DNA of 64,000 bases from Escherichia coli O127:H6 str. E2348/69 (GCF_000026545.1 NC_011601.1), one strand, 5' to 3'; shown: positions 9,808 to 53,814, counted from the first letter of the stretch. Notes: generated by a model not told the origin, from the sequence alone. Numbers and translations are program-made.

Positions 9808-11357
9808 CTGTCTCTTATACACAAATCCCCACCCGGGGATTTGTGATGTCTGTCAGTCTGCTTTAGGGGGACTCTTTCCATCCGGTAGTTTCCTTCCTCC
9901 CCGGCAGCGATTTTTTGAACTTTTTCCTCACCCGTTGATCTTCTCTTATATTTCATTTTCTTCGGGTCTGTTATGGTACTTTCTGATTGTTATTCATGGG
10001 CTAACGAGCAGTTTGGACATGCCCGTCTCGGTGATCCGCGTCGTACACGACGCCTTGTGTCACTGGCCTCTTCTCTCGCTCAGCATGCAGGTCTTTCTAT
10101 TGTGAAATCATCCCAGTCCACTGCTCAGGTTGAAGGTGCGTACCGCCTGATACGTAACCCGTCTGTGTCCCCGCAAGCCATTGCCGAAGCCGGATTTACC
10201 GCCACTGTAAGGGCATGTGAGGCTCATCCGCTGCTCCTCGCGCTGGAAGACACCACCACCATTAACTTCAGTCACAGTACGGCATCTGATGACCTGGGGA
10301 ATACCACCACTAACCCGAAGACGCGCGGGCTGCTGGCTCACTCTGTCCTGATGTACGCCCCCGACAGCGCCCTGCCAGTCGGTCTTATCGAACAGCAGCG
10401 CTGGAGTCGTGCCACGGACACCTACGGTGTTAAGCACCAGCGAAAAGAACGTCCCTATGAAGAAAAAGAAAGTTACCGCTGGCAGCAGGCTTCGGAGCGC
10501 ATGGCCGAATGGCTGGGGGAGATACAGAAACGGGTAATCACTGTCTGTGACCGGGAAGCGGATATCTGGCATTACCTGCATTATAAAGTCAGCCACGGGC
10601 AGCGCTTCGTGGTGCGTGCAGCACAGAATCGCCGGCTGGAAGAAGCACCCGGCAAGCTCTTCGAACTGCCGGAAGTCCTGGCAACCGCGGGAAGCCACAC
10701 GCTGAATGTGATGCAAAAAGGCGGGCGGGCAGCCCGCCAGGCCCGGATGTTCATCAGTTACAGCGAAGTCAGCATAAAAAATCCCGACAACAGCGGCCAG
10801 GCGCTCCCGCTCACGTATGTCTGTTGCCGGGAGCAGGCAGAGGACGGCGCCTGCTGGCATCTGCTGACGTCAGAAAAAGTGGCGAGTGCCGCCGATGCGC
10901 GACGTATCGTCAGCCATTACGAGCGACGCTGGCTGATAGAGGAATACCACAAGGCGTGGAAAAGTGGTGGTACATGTGTGGAATCGCTGCGAATGCAGAC
11001 CCGGGATAACCTCGAGCGCATGGTGGTTATCAAGGCGTTTATCGCGGTGCGGGTGCTGGGCCTGCGGCAGGGCGGTATCAGTGAAGAAACACAAAATGAC
11101 AGCTGTGAGAAAATACTGACGCCGACAGAGTGGAAACTGCTGTGGGTTAAGCTGGAAGGAAAACCGCTTCCGTCACAGATGCCGACACTGAAATGGGCCT
11201 GTCTGAAACTGGCGAAACTGGGGCGATGGCATGACAGCAAACGCACCGGTCGCCCCGGTTGGGTAGTCATGTGGGATGGCTGGTTCAGACTTCAGGATAT
11301 GGTTGAGGGTTACCTGGTGATGAAGTCTCTTGATCAGGAGATCTGATCAAGAGACAG
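9808..11357 (+). mobile_element. IS50/Tn5-like insertion sequence (IS4 family), apparently complete
   Basis: left terminus ctgtctcttatacacaaat (17/19 to Tn5 OE, 17/19 to ME); right terminus agatctgatcaagagacag is the exact reverse complement of the Tn5 inside end CTGTCTCTTGATCAGATCT; single transposase ORF reads from the OE-like end and stops inside the IE-like end as in IS50; flanked by direct repeat ccgagcgg. Confidence 0.85.
9973..11346 (+). CDS. IS4-family (IS50-group) DDE transposase
   Basis: 457-aa ORF with Tn5 Tnp hallmarks: LGDPRRT near N-terminus, ALEDTT and VCDREADI (catalytic Asp positions), RWLIEEYHKAWKSG (YREK motif with catalytic Glu); overall only moderately similar to canonical Tn5 Tnp as recalled. 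Confidence 0.85.
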   Translation: MVLSDCYSWANEQFGHARLGDPRRTRRLVSLASSLAQHAGLSIVKSSQSTAQVEGAYRLIRNPSVSPQAIAEAGFTATVRACEAHPLLLALEDTTTINFSHSTASDDLGNTTTNPKTRGLLAHSVLMYAPDSALPVGLIEQQRWSRATDTYGVKHQRKERPYEEKESYRWQQASERMAEWLGEIQKRVITVCDREADIWHYLHYKVSHGQRFVVRAAQNRRLEEAPGKLFELPEVLATAGSHTLNVMQKGGRAARQARMFISYSEVSIKNPDNSGQALPLTYVCCREQAEDGACWHLLTSEKVASAADARRIVSHYERRWLIEEYHKAWKSGGTCVESLRMQTRDNLERMVVIKAFIAVRVLGLRQGGISEETQNDSCEKILTPTEWKLLWVKLEGKPLPSQMPTLKWACLKLAKLGRWHDSKRTGRPGWVVMWDGWFRLQDMVEGYLVMKSLDQEI

Positions 11358-11365
11358 CCGAGCGG
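11358..11365. repeat. right copy of target-site duplication flanking IS50-like element
   Basis: ccgagcgg, identical to 9800..9807; the two flanks reconstitute the C6-GAGC-G6 hairpin expected at this site. Confidence 0.6.
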
Positions 11366-11381
11366 GGGGATCTCAAAACAA

Positions 11382-11948
11382 TTAGTGGGATTCACCAATC
11401 GGCAGAACGGTGCGACCAAACTGCTCGTTCAGTACTTCACCCATCGCCAGATAGATTGCGCTGGCACCGCAGATCAGACCAATCCAGCCGGCAAAGTGGA
11501 TGATTGCGGCGTTACCGGCAATGTTACCGATCGCCAGCAGGGCAAACAGCACGGTCAGGCTAAAGAAAACGAATTGCAGAACGCGTGCGCCTTTCAGCGT
11601 GCCGAAGAACATAAACAGCGTAAATACGCCCCACAGACCCAGGTAGGCACCAAGGAACTGTGCATTTGGCGCATCGGTCAGACCCAGTTTCGGCATCAGC
11701 AGAATCGCAACCAGCGTCAGCCAGAAAGAACCGTAAGAGGTGAATGCGGTTAAACCGAAAGTGTTGCCTTTTTTGTACTCCAGCAGACCGGCAAAAATTT
11801 GCGCGATGCCGCCGTAGAAAATGCCCATGGCAAGAATAATACCGTCCAGAGCAAAATAACCCACGTTGTGCAGGTTAAGCAGAATGGTGGTCATGCCGAA
11901 GCCCATCAGGCCCAGCGGTGCCGGATTAGCCAACTTAGTGTTGCCCAT
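11382..11948 (-). CDS. satP: succinate-acetate/proton symporter
   Basis: 188-aa membrane ORF MGNTKLANPAPLGLMGFGMTTILLNLHN (YaaH/GPR1 family). Confidence 0.9.
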   Translation of the reverse strand: MGNTKLANPAPLGLMGFGMTTILLNLHNVGYFALDGIILAMGIFYGGIAQIFAGLLEYKKGNTFGLTAFTSYGSFWLTLVAILLMPKLGLTDAPNAQFLGAYLGLWGVFTLFMFFGTLKGARVLQFVFFSLTVLFALLAIGNIAGNAAIIHFAGWIGLICGASAIYLAMGEVLNEQFGRTVLPIGESH

Positions 11949-12096
11949 AATTCCTCAAAAATCATCATCGAATGAATGGTGAAATAATTTCCCTGAATAA
12001 CTGTAGTGTTTTCAGGGCGCGGCATAATAATCAGCCAGTGGGGCAGTGTCTACGATCTTTTGAGGGGAAAATGAAAATTTTCCCCGGTTTCCGGTA

Positions 12097-12810
12097 TCAG
12101 ACCTGAGTGGCGCTAACCATCCGGCGCAGGCAAGCGATTTGCAGTACGGCTGGAATTGTCACGCGATAGGCACTGCCGCTGACCGCTTTAACCCCATTTA
12201 ATGCTGCGCCCACAGGGCCTCCCAGACCCGCGCCGCGCAGCAAACCATGCCCAAGCACGCTCATTGCTGCGTGGGTGCGTAAAATGCGGGTCAATTGGCT
12301 GGAAAGCAAATGCGACACACCTTTTGCCAATAATTTGTCTTTCATCAGCAGCGGCAGCAGCTCTTCCAGCTCATTCACCCTGGCATCGACCGCGTGCAGA
12401 AACTCCTGCTTATGTTCCTCGTCCATTTTCTTCCAGGTATTACGCAGAAATTGTTCCAGTAACTGTTGCTCAATTTCAAACGTAGACATCTCTTTGTCGG
12501 CTTTCAGCTTCAATCGCTTTGAAACATCGAGCAAAATGGCGCGATACAATTTACCGTGTCCGCGCAGTTTGTTGGCGATACTATCGCCACCAAAATGCTG
12601 TAATTCTCCGGCAATCAGCTGCCAGTTGCGGCGGTATCGCTCGGGATGTCCTTCCATCGATTTAAACAGTTCGTTGCGCATCAGTACGCTGGAGAGGCGA
12701 GTTTTGCCTTTTTCATTATGGGTGAGCAGCCGGGCGAAATTTGCCAACTGTTCTTCACTACAATGCTGGAGAAAATCCAGATCTGAATCATTCAGGTAAT
12801 TAACATTCAT
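12097..12810 (-). CDS. yaaW: UPF0174 family protein YaaW
   Basis: 237-aa ORF MNVNYLNDSDLDFLQHCSEEQLANFARLLTHNEKGK. Confidence 0.8.
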   Translation of the reverse strand: MNVNYLNDSDLDFLQHCSEEQLANFARLLTHNEKGKTRLSSVLMRNELFKSMEGHPERYRRNWQLIAGELQHFGGDSIANKLRGHGKLYRAILLDVSKRLKLKADKEMSTFEIEQQLLEQFLRNTWKKMDEEHKQEFLHAVDARVNELEELLPLLMKDKLLAKGVSHLLSSQLTRILRTHAAMSVLGHGLLRGAGLGGPVGAALNGVKAVSGSAYRVTIPAVLQIACLRRMVSATQV

Positions 12811-12835
12811 TTTTTGTGGTTTCTATATTCTGGCG

Positions 12836-13240
12836 TTAGTCGTCGCCGATAATTTTCAGCGTGGCCATATCAGATGAGTTCACTGTATGACCGGAAAAGG
12901 TGATTTTTGAGACGCAGCGTTTGTTGTCGTTATCGCTGTTAATGTTGATCCAGTCAGTGGTTTGCCCTTCTTTTATTTCTGAAGGAATATTCAGGGTCTG
13001 ACTGGCGCTACGGGTGGCTTTGAAATAAACCGATGCACCGCTTAACTGCAAATCGCCATGGTCGGTTGAGAGCTGTATGCGTTTAACAATGCGACAAACA
13101 GGAAGTTTCAGCGCTAGATCGTTGGTTTCGTTTCGCGGCATTGCAATGACGCCGAGGATTTTATGGTCGTTTGCCTGCGCCGTGCAGCACAGCATCAGGC
13201 TAATCGCCAGGCTGGCGGAAATCGTAATAACGGATTTCAT
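12836..13240 (-). CDS. yaaI: DUF2541 family secreted protein YaaI
   Basis: 134-aa ORF with signal peptide [23 protein letters not shown]. Confidence 0.8.
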
Positions 13241-13454
13241 AAGGATTCTCTTGGTGGGGAGGGGTAGGGGGATGAAACTAGTTTACTGCTGATAAAGAGA
13301 AGTTTCAGGCACGTAATATTTTATTTTTATTACAATTTTTTGATGAATGCCTTGGCTGCGATTCATTCTTTATATGAATAAAATTGCTGTCAGTTTTACG
13401 TCTTGTCCTGCCATATCGCGAAATTTCTGCGCAAAAGCACAAAAAATTTTTGCA

Positions 13455-13490
13455 TCTCCCCCTTGATGACGTGGGTTACGACCCCATTTA
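13455..13490 (+). promoter_or_regulatory. sigma-32 heat-shock promoter of dnaK
   Basis: tctcccccttgatg (-35 like TCTCnCCCTTGAA) and ccccattta (-10 like CCCCATnTA) with appropriate spacing, about 120 bp upstream of dnaK. Confidence 0.6.
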
Positions 13491-13611
13491 GTAGTCAACC
13501 GCAGTGAGTGAGTCTGCAAAAAAATGAAATTGGGCAGTTGAAACCAGACGTTTCGCCCCTATTACAGACTCACAACCACATGATGACCGAATATATAGTG
13601 GAGACGTTTAG

Positions 13612-15528
13612 ATGGGTAAAATAATTGGTATCGACCTGGGTACTACCAACTCTTGTGTAGCGATTATGGATGGCACCACTCCTCGTGTACTGGAGAACGC
13701 CGAAGGCGATCGCACCACGCCTTCTATCATTGCCTATACCCAGGATGGTGAAACTCTGGTTGGTCAGCCGGCTAAACGTCAGGCAGTGACGAACCCGCAA
13801 AACACCCTGTTTGCGATTAAACGCCTGATTGGCCGCCGCTTCCAGGACGAAGAAGTACAGCGTGATGTTTCCATCATGCCGTTCAAAATTATTGCTGCTG
13901 ATAACGGCGACGCATGGGTCGAAGTTAAAGGCCAGAAAATGGCACCGCCGCAGATCTCTGCTGAAGTGCTGAAAAAAATGAAGAAAACCGCTGAAGATTA
14001 CCTGGGTGAACCGGTAACTGAAGCTGTTATCACCGTACCGGCATACTTTAACGATGCTCAGCGTCAGGCAACCAAAGACGCAGGCCGTATCGCTGGTCTG
14101 GAAGTAAAACGTATCATCAACGAACCGACCGCAGCTGCGCTGGCTTACGGTCTGGACAAAGGTACTGGCAACCGTACTATCGCGGTTTATGACCTGGGTG
14201 GTGGTACTTTCGATATTTCTATTATCGAAATCGACGAAGTTGACGGCGAAAAAACCTTCGAAGTTCTGGCTACCAACGGTGATACCCACCTGGGTGGTGA
14301 AGACTTCGACAGCCGTCTGATCAACTACCTGGTTGAAGAATTCAAGAAAGATCAGGGCATTGACTTGCGCAACGATCCGCTGGCAATGCAGCGCCTGAAA
14401 GAAGCGGCAGAAAAAGCGAAAATCGAACTGTCTTCCGCTCAGCAGACCGACGTTAACCTGCCGTACATCACTGCAGACGCGACCGGTCCGAAACACATGA
14501 ACATCAAAGTGACTCGTGCGAAACTGGAAAGCCTGGTTGAAGATCTGGTAAACCGTTCCATTGAGCCGCTGAAAGTTGCACTGCAGGACGCTGGCCTGTC
14601 CGTATCTGATATCGACGACGTTATCCTCGTTGGTGGTCAGACTCGTATGCCAATGGTTCAGAAGAAAGTTGCTGAATTCTTTGGTAAAGAGCCGCGTAAA
14701 GACGTTAACCCGGACGAAGCTGTAGCAATCGGTGCTGCTGTTCAGGGTGGTGTTCTGACTGGTGACGTGAAAGACGTACTGCTGCTGGACGTTACCCCGC
14801 TGTCTCTGGGTATCGAAACCATGGGCGGTGTGATGACGACGCTGATCGCGAAAAACACCACTATCCCGACCAAGCACAGCCAGGTGTTCTCTACCGCTGA
14901 AGACAACCAGTCTGCGGTAACCATCCACGTGCTGCAGGGTGAACGTAAACGTGCGGCTGATAACAAATCTCTGGGTCAGTTCAACCTGGATGGTATCAAC
15001 CCGGCACCGCGCGGCATGCCGCAGATCGAAGTTACCTTCGATATCGATGCTGACGGTATCCTGCACGTTTCCGCGAAAGATAAAAACAGCGGTAAAGAGC
15101 AGAAGATCACCATCAAGGCTTCTTCTGGTCTGAACGAAGATGAAATCCAGAAAATGGTACGCGACGCAGAAGCTAACGCCGAAGCTGACCGTAAGTTTGA
15201 AGAGCTGGTACAGACTCGCAACCAGGGTGACCATCTGCTGCACAGCACCCGTAAGCAGGTTGAAGAAGCAGGCGACAAACTGCCGGCTGACGACAAAACT
15301 GCTATCGAGTCTGCGCTGACTGCACTGGAAACTGCTCTGAAAGGTGAAGACAAAGCCGCTATCGAAGCGAAAATGCAGGAACTGGCACAGGTTTCCCAGA
15401 AACTGATGGAAATCGCCCAGCAGCAACATGCCCAGCAGCAGACTGCCGGTGCTGATGCTTCTGCAAACAACGCGAAAGATGACGATGTTGTCGACGCTGA
15501 ATTTGAAGAAGTCAAAGACAAAAAATAA
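13612..15528 (+). CDS. dnaK: chaperone Hsp70
   Basis: 638-aa [24 protein letters not shown]. Confidence 0.97.
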
Positions 15529-53263: not shown

Positions 53264-53497
53264 ATGACTGCAAAACGTACCACACAAAGTGTGACCGTCA
53301 CCGTCGACCGTGAGTTAGTCAATCGCGCTCGTGATGCAGGCTTAAATATGAGCGCCACCCTTACGGTTGCGCTCAATGCTGAACTTAAAAAACATGCAGC
53401 AACACGTTGGCGTGAAGAGAACGCAGAAGCTATCGCTGCGTTAAATCAATTGGCTGATGAAACCGGATGTTTCTCTGATGAGTACCGGAGCTTCTAG
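53264..53497 (+). CDS. ccdA: type II antitoxin CcdA (chromosomal ccd, O157-type)
   Basis: 77-aa ORF MTAKRTTQSVTVTVDRELVNRARDAGLNMSATLTV...RWREENAEAI...CFSDEYRSF, same pattern as F-plasmid CcdA; lies in the folA-apaH intergenic region. Confidence 0.85.
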   Translation: MTAKRTTQSVTVTVDRELVNRARDAGLNMSATLTVALNAELKKHAATRWREENAEAIAALNQLADETGCFSDEYRSF

Positions 53498-53499
53498 CG

Positions 53500-53814
53500 A
53501 TGCAATTTACGGTATACCGCAGTCGCGGCAGGAACGCCGCGTTTCCCTTTGTTATTGATGTTACCAGCGACATTATTGGTGAGATTAATCGCCGTATCGT
53601 TATTCCATTAACACCTATTGAACGATTTAGCCGTATTCGCCCACCAGAACGGCTTAACCCAATCCTTTTACTGGTAGACGGCAAAGAATATGTGCTCATG
53701 ACGCATGAGACTGCAACTGTTCCAGTTAACGCGCTGGGAACGAAATTTTGCGATGCCAGCGCGCACCGAACGTTGATTAAAGGAGCATTAGATTTTATGC
53801 TCGACGGGATTTAA
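53500..53814 (+). CDS. ccdB: type II toxin CcdB (gyrase poison family)
   Basis: 104-aa [40 protein letters not shown]... ending ...FMLDGI, homologous to F-plasmid CcdB (MQFKVY...FWGI); starts 3 nt after ccdA stop. Confidence 0.85.

Follow-up and report, generated by a model that had tools for sequence, protein, structure and literature searches.

Does the strand opposite yaaW encode proteins of its own in Escherichia coli, or are the reading frames found there by-products of the yaaW sequence? We analysed a stretch of 64,000 nucleotides from E. coli O127:H6 str. E2348/69, referred to below as the window. In the window, yaaW (237 aa) occupies 12097..12810 on the minus strand and is a conserved, real gene. 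An earlier reading made from the sequence alone (the sequence-only reading) had noted two overlapping plus-strand open reading frames (ORFs), of 94 and 174 codons, inside yaaW. Both were reproduced exactly, at 12201..12485 and 12275..12799, respectively. The longer one lies at the locus of htgA/mbiA, a textbook example of antisense overprinting in E. coli whose coding sequence (CDS) is still present in the K-12 reference. Fellner et al. reportedly announced a phenotype for htgA (mbiA) in the title of a 2014 paper (FEMS Microbiol Lett 350:57). We consider it probable (roughly 0.72) that yaaW is the functional gene and that both plus-strand ORFs are non-selected shadow ORFs, by-products of the YaaW sequence. 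Under this reading, the amino-acid sequence of YaaW and its codon choice would leave the frames open, and selection would not be what keeps them so.

The gene order in this part of the window is mog, ISEc13, satP, yaaW, yaaI and dnaK. The two neighbours of yaaW, satP downstream (11382..11948) and yaaI (DUF2541) upstream (12836..13240), are on the same minus strand, and dnaK (13612..15528, plus strand) follows yaaI. The IS4-like transposase gene of ISEc13 (9973..11346, plus strand) is located between mog and satP. No copy of ISEc13 is present at the corresponding K-12 site, and its insertion causes an offset of +1454 between the window and K-12 coordinates. In the K-12 record NC_000913.3, yaaW is b0011 (10643..11356, minus strand; 'putative enzyme-specific chaperone YaaW') and mbiA is b0012 (10830..11315, plus strand; 'uncharacterized protein MbiA'), formerly named htgA or htpY (PMC2268670). 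K-12 mbiA maps to 12284..12769 of the window in the frame of the 174-aa ORF, and its ATG at 10830 corresponds to the ATG at 12284. The sequence-only reading had stated that the K-12 annotation historically places htgA antisense to yaaW, and the record bears this out, with the same frame and the same ATG. The 174-aa ORF is an allele of K-12 mbiA/htgA/htpY (b0012), and the locus is already known. The two alleles share the locus (mog-satP-yaaW-yaaI-dnaK), the strand and the position antisense wholly within yaaW, the DNA of which is 97.3% identical. They differ in the stop: the K-12 TGA at 11313-11315, which ends a 161-aa frame, reads TGG in E2348/69, so that the ORF here is 10 codons longer than K-12 mbiA. 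Three residues differ across the common 145-codon core (12284..12718). The difference in the stop is allelic, within the same locus.

YaaW matched two Pfam families, PF13099 (DUF3944, an N-terminal motif; 1.2e-14) and PF03981 (Ubiq_cyt_C_chap; 1.4e-15), and fitted the enterobacterial equivalog NF007593 of NCBIfam over its full length (519 bits, positions 1-237). A yaaW match was found in 5,424 of 5,426 complete E. coli genomes, with at least 95% identity in all but one. All full-length copies in Escherichia, Citrobacter and Salmonella are 714 nt long with no indels, and dN/dS is about 0.02-0.05. The coding score of yaaW, calculated as the per-codon log-likelihood of window codon usage against base composition, was +0.319 per codon versus a median of +0.360 for the real genes (n = 49). 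A PDB sequence search with YaaW returned no significant match.

The 174-aa ORF starts with GTG at 12275, contains an in-frame ATG at 12284 (171 aa) and ends with TAA at 12797-12799. It is part of a stop-free stretch of 209 codons (12170..12796, plus strand) between the TAG at 12167 and the TAA at 12797. In this frame, the third codon positions of both strands are opposed, and the first and second antisense positions pair with the second and first positions, respectively, of the next yaaW codon. The same arrangement is called 'phase 123/213' by Delaye 2008 (PMC2268670) and 'frame -2' elsewhere (PMC4182739). It differs from the full-codon-overlap frame, the usual home of the longest shadow ORFs. 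The 94-aa ORF starts with ATG and uses a second frame, in which codon position 2 faces yaaW position 3.

In the mbiA frame, the YaaW codons set positions 1 and 2 of each antisense codon, so that the sequence of the antisense peptide mirrors that of YaaW deterministically. Under these pairing rules, Leu (CTN), Asp and Glu of YaaW would give antisense Ser, and His and Gln would give Cys, Trp or a stop. An antisense stop would arise only at sense-strand NNY-TAN or NNT-CAN codon junctions. YaaW contains 4 Tyr, 10 His and 11 Gln, and the frame stays open because Tyr is so scarce and because the 21 His and Gln codons rarely follow a codon ending in T. The 174-aa peptide had been described from the sequence as Ser/Cys-rich and of low complexity, which is correct: Ser makes up 23.6% and Cys 8.0%, versus 5.2% and 1.4% in the proteins of the window. 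All 41 Ser residues lie opposite Leu (15), Asp (9) or Glu (17) of YaaW, and all 14 Cys residues opposite His (7) or Gln (7). This composition is fully set by the YaaW codons.

The strongest alternative, which we regard as unlikely, is that mbiA is a genuine, very young coding gene that arose by overprinting in Escherichia, as proposed in Delaye 2008 and Fellner 2014. The window would then carry its 171/174-aa allele, translated at a low level and with effects on stress or biofilms, and its youth, or the weakness of selection on it, would hide any signal of purifying selection. The curated K-12 record, which keeps the mbiA CDS, speaks for this alternative, and so do the published experimental claims (PMC2268670).

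We compared the length of the ORFs with chance by recoding YaaW synonymously 20,000 times with the protein kept. An ORF of at least 174 aa was obtained with a probability of 0.067 when yaaW's own synonymous codons were permuted and of 0.030 under window codon usage. A stop-free stretch of at least 209 codons had a probability of 0.010-0.018 under synonymous recoding, and the mean longest ORF of recoded YaaW in the mbiA frame was 96-107 aa. The length of the 174-aa ORF exceeds chance only marginally; it lies in the upper tail, which is not anomalous in a genome with several thousand genes. The 94-aa ORF is of typical length (P = 0.22 with own codons and 0.11 with window usage) and is a chance ORF.

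The yaaW ORF covers 0.73 of the gene, the largest share in that frame for any of the window's 55 annotated CDS. This share and the probabilities of 0.03-0.07, which are not large, are a counterweight to the shadow reading, and a length in the upper 3-7% of recodings favors a young gene. In the same window, dnaK carries a 181-aa antisense ORF in the mbiA-type frame. Over the 55 CDS, antisense stops occur at 3.58 per 100 codons in the mbiA-type frame versus 1.84 in the full-overlap frame. The latter contains antisense ORFs of 637 aa in carB, 403 aa in ileS, 250 aa in ISEc13, 218 aa in caiB and 215 aa in lptD, and a run of 639 stop-free codons opposite dnaK. The yaaW ORF resembles the shadow ORFs of biased genes such as dnaK/hsp70 in that the codon and amino-acid usage of the sense strand explains it and in that it lacks independent conservation. 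Unlike them, it lies in the third-to-third frame, where the stop density is twice as high, and with 73% of the host gene it is rarer than the usual shadow-ORF case.

The coding signals of the antisense ORFs were those of shadow ORFs. The 174-aa ORF had a coding score of -0.307, close to the median of 13 same-frame shadow ORFs (-0.314; range -0.542 to -0.203) and below all 49 real genes (lowest, -0.003); the 94-aa ORF scored -0.168. The codon usage and composition of the longer ORF are indistinguishable from those of other shadow ORFs, which argues against a young gene. Pfam and NCBIfam scans gave no match for either antisense peptide. When the 174-aa peptide was searched against 5.8 billion proteins, only 4 clusters matched, one of which is an annotated E. 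coli entry. Clusters P0002 and P0004 were considered as independent homologues and rejected, as both come from assemblies with a frameshifted yaaW; the frameshifts break yaaW and its neighbours and led the gene caller to choose the opposite strand there. Single-sequence AlphaFold2 modelling of the 174-aa peptide gave a pLDDT of 28.9 and two 3-residue strands, with otherwise no secondary structure. This near absence of predicted structure weighs against a young gene, but the contrast is weak evidence because the all-helical YaaW model is also poor (pLDDT 45.9).

The duplex energy with the anti-Shine-Dalgarno sequence was +1.9 kcal/mol at GTG 12275, -3.9 kcal/mol at ATG 12284 and +0.7 kcal/mol at ATG 12201, and the medians were -5.8 for genes and -2.1 for background. 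GTG 12275 lacks a Shine-Dalgarno sequence, and ATG 12284 falls at the 33rd percentile of genes. This weak Shine-Dalgarno sequence, together with the retention of ATG 12284 in Escherichia, is a point in favor of a young gene; the test itself is weak because yaaW scores +0.2.

To follow the frames among relatives, we assembled 13 distinct E. coli yaaW sequences (96-100% identity) and three other Escherichia lineages, including E. albertii. Other genera were represented by three Citrobacter, Salmonella diarizonae and an Enterobacteriaceae MAG. Each of the 16 distinct Escherichia sequences had the mbiA frame open between 12170 and at least 12718, with the core (12284..12718) and ATG 12284 intact in 16 of 16, which counts against the shadow reading. 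In Citrobacter, Salmonella and UBA7338, 3-6 stops interrupt the frame within 12284..12766, and Delaye 2008 likewise found it closed outside Escherichia (PMC2268670). A frame open in every Escherichia sampled and closed in other genera is a point in favor of a gene born in Escherichia. Residue 73 of YaaW (12592..12594) is Tyr in 5 of 5 non-Escherichia orthologues and Phe in all Escherichia, and the Tyr73 codon places a TAA in the antisense frame. As judged from these alignments, Tyr73 to Phe is probably one replacement that opened the frame in Escherichia. The shadow reading would have the mbiA frame opened in the Escherichia lineage by changes such as this one and drifting since.

The boundaries of the ORF are not conserved among close relatives: E. 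coli has three stop positions, and the GTG at 12275 is variable, being lost in two Escherichia lineages. The mbiA frame stops at 12719 in strain 624 and E. albertii, at 12767 in the K-12 type and at 12797 in the window type. At 12767..12769, the window has TGG and K-12 has TGA, a difference that is silent in yaaW (Leu14, CTC/CTT). At 12719..12721, TGG in the window is replaced by TGA in some E. coli and E. albertii, again silently (Thr30, ACC/ACT). A third possible stop site is 12296..12298 at mbiA codon 5, where 12298 G>A would leave YaaW Ser171 unchanged (AGC>AGT). These three (12298, 12721 and 12769) are the only yaaW-silent transitions able to create a stop in the ORF, and two of them segregate in E. 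coli.

Allele counts were obtained in the 5,426 complete E. coli genomes using 36-mers in which every 28-base seed spans the variant. The long, window-type allele 12769G was the majority form, present in 3,856 genomes, and the K-12-type stop 12769A was present in 1,500 of the 5,426. The 12721A stop was found in 248 of the 5,426 genomes. No 12298A stop was detected in two 30-mer contexts, the first of which had its wild-type 30-mer in only 1,696 genomes. The mbiA stop codon is a polymorphism that affects a large fraction of strains, and three C-terminal length alleles at high frequency count against a young gene. The sequence-only reading had named free variation of stop codons in the antisense frame as evidence against coding; such variation is present at the 3' end, which is polymorphic in E. 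coli, and absent from the core, which is open in all 16 Escherichia sequences. The 94-aa frame is less stable. Interruptions occur in one E. coli (L022) and in 3 of 3 non-coli Escherichia sampled; the start is ATG or GTG among E. coli and is lost in E. albertii. Every yaaW-silent change alters this ORF, with 63 replacements and 3 stops.

Selection on the antisense peptide was evaluated by sorting yaaW-silent changes into antisense-silent, replacement and stop classes and comparing them with mutational opportunity, using separate transition and transversion rates. Among the 16 Escherichia sequences (12284..12766), 96 yaaW-silent substitutions were distributed 71/24/1, versus 72.7/21.6/1.7 expected (p = 0.72). 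Antisense-altering changes in Escherichia therefore numbered 25, against about 23 expected neutrally. The Citrobacter/Salmonella clade, in which the frame is closed, gave the same pattern (observed 112/33/6, expected 110.8/35.1/5.1, p = 0.86). The antisense omega was 1.10 (95% CI 0.67-1.75), and values of 0.5 or less (p = 0.001) and 0.3 or less (p < 1e-6) were rejected. The sequence-only reading had proposed a check for synonymous-site constraint on the antisense frame across Escherichia, and none was found. An omega near 1.1, the same as in a clade without the ORF, stands against a young gene, but weak constraint (omega above about 0.67) is compatible with the test, and a very young gene might show it. 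Within the conserved core, 1.2 stop-creating silent changes were expected over the whole Escherichia sample and 0 were observed. Since so few were expected, the core can remain open without selection.

The peptide itself has diverged more than its host. Over the common 145 codons, comparison with E. albertii gives 19 differing residues in the antisense peptide and 6 in YaaW; the corresponding counts are 15 and 4, and 13 and 4, for the two other Escherichia lineages. Under the shadow reading, the apparent conservation of the peptide would be inherited from strong purifying selection on YaaW. A published caution for this frame is that any conservation seen in it 'might be solely an artefact' produced by selection on the host gene (PMC4182739).

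Delaye 2008 put forward a rate argument, namely that the evolution of yaaW is slowed in the part shared with htgA (PMC2268670). The dS between the window and E. albertii was 1.01 for yaaW, 0.29 for satP and 0.80 for yaaI, so that the silent divergence of yaaW is not reduced. Replacement and silent changes in yaaW numbered 10/91 in Escherichia versus 28/98 in Citrobacter (Fisher p = 0.019). The low Escherichia ratio was considered as a footprint of dual coding and rejected, as it is equally strong outside the overlap: N/S in Escherichia was 0.08-0.16 within the overlap and 0.07-0.19 outside, and in Citrobacter it was 0.24-0.29, equally high in both parts. The low N/S is thus a lineage effect on YaaW. 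An N/S independent of the overlap, as seen in these alignments, undercuts the rate argument of Delaye 2008. Neither slowed silent sites nor an overlap-specific slowing of replacements in yaaW is available to a young gene. Taken against the present genome sample, both sequence arguments for htgA, peptide conservation and a slower yaaW, fail. We infer from these comparisons that any protein from the mbiA frame would have no selected function. The sequence-only reading had called genuine coding doubtful, and the lack of purifying selection, the polymorphic stops, the shadow-type codon usage and the YaaW-dictated composition all agree with it.

Delaye 2008 cites earlier work on htgA comprising cloning, Northern blots, protein labelling and promoter mapping, and calls the existence of htgA controversial (PMC2268670). 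This earlier work weighs against the shadow reading, as does an intragenic promoter at htgA/yaaW with reported activity in vitro (PMC2731890). The same 2008 paper mentions a failure to reproduce sigma-32 induction and a re-assignment of the start codon, both of which count against a young gene, and describes one strain with a nonsense mutation in htgA. Other antisense overlapping genes have been claimed experimentally in EHEC, namely nog1/citC, ano, laoB, asa and pop (PMC4683798, PMC5960689). The mbiA ORF is like these in being lineage-restricted, antisense in a conserved gene and of proposed overprinting origin. The EHEC cases rest on RNA-seq, ribosome profiling and competitive-growth phenotypes, whereas the mbiA ORF is known here from its sequence, and our sequence tests on it lend selection no support. 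A variant that we hold to be slightly less probable still than a young gene in the broad sense is that mbiA is a translated de novo gene at its earliest stage, expressed and phenotypically active while evolving neutrally. If true, length alleles of about 145, 161 and 171 aa would segregate at about 5%, 28% and 70%, and the long majority form, which the K-12 reference lacks, would be the one in the window.

A further reading is that the functional plus-strand product is a non-coding antisense RNA modulating yaaW, or read-through toward yaaI/dnaK, with the ORFs incidental; the published htgA phenotypes would then reflect this RNA or a disturbance of yaaW. Such an RNA would agree with the antisense or intragenic promoter at htgA/yaaW reported to be active in vitro (PMC2731890), with the Northern signals cited in PMC2268670 and with the neutral pattern of the peptide frame, which is compatible with a product whose peptide sequence is irrelevant. 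We consider this reading very improbable. Rfam gave no family match in 11300..13700 (E <= 1), and the dS of yaaW, the highest of the three neighbours, leaves no silent-site constraint on sequence or structure visible. A plus-strand promoter scan showed no consensus sigma-70 promoter in 12100..12300 or upstream of it, a result that also favors the shadow reading. Antisense transcripts are moreover widespread in E. coli and may well lack a function.

The three transitions that are silent in yaaW, two of which occur naturally, offer clean knock-outs of the mbiA frame; 12298 is the natural site for one that leaves YaaW unchanged. Genome scans should flag ORFs of this kind only after comparing them with a recoding null and testing for selection at silent sites.

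Several observations concern yaaW itself. NF007593 (237 positions) carries the label 'acidic protein MsyB' and yet fits YaaW end to end. The true K-12 MsyB is b1051 (124 aa, 1113807..1114181) and matches NF008544, 'MysB family protein'. Because of the NF007593 label, over 5,400 E. coli genomes in RefSeq carry yaaW under the PGAP name 'msyB', which looks like a propagated naming error. In one E. coli genome (NZ_CP180600.1), yaaW is split by an IS1 element, and two of the 5,426 genomes have no yaaW match; thus, yaaW is dispensable at least occasionally. Three matches were on records typed as plasmids. No Shine-Dalgarno sequence was detectable for yaaW at 12811..12830 (duplex energy +0.2 kcal/mol versus the gene median of -5.8), and its start lies 25 bases past the yaaI stop. 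Translation of yaaW may depend on yaaI or on an A-rich leader.

In every Escherichia pair, satP had a dS several-fold below those of yaaW and yaaI; between the window and K-12, the values were 0.021 for satP, 0.111 for yaaW and 0.119 for yaaI. The gap may stem from a recombination boundary or from strong bias in the codon usage of satP. Elsewhere in the window, a chromosomal ccdA/ccdB toxin-antitoxin pair is located between apaH and folA, at about 53264..53814.
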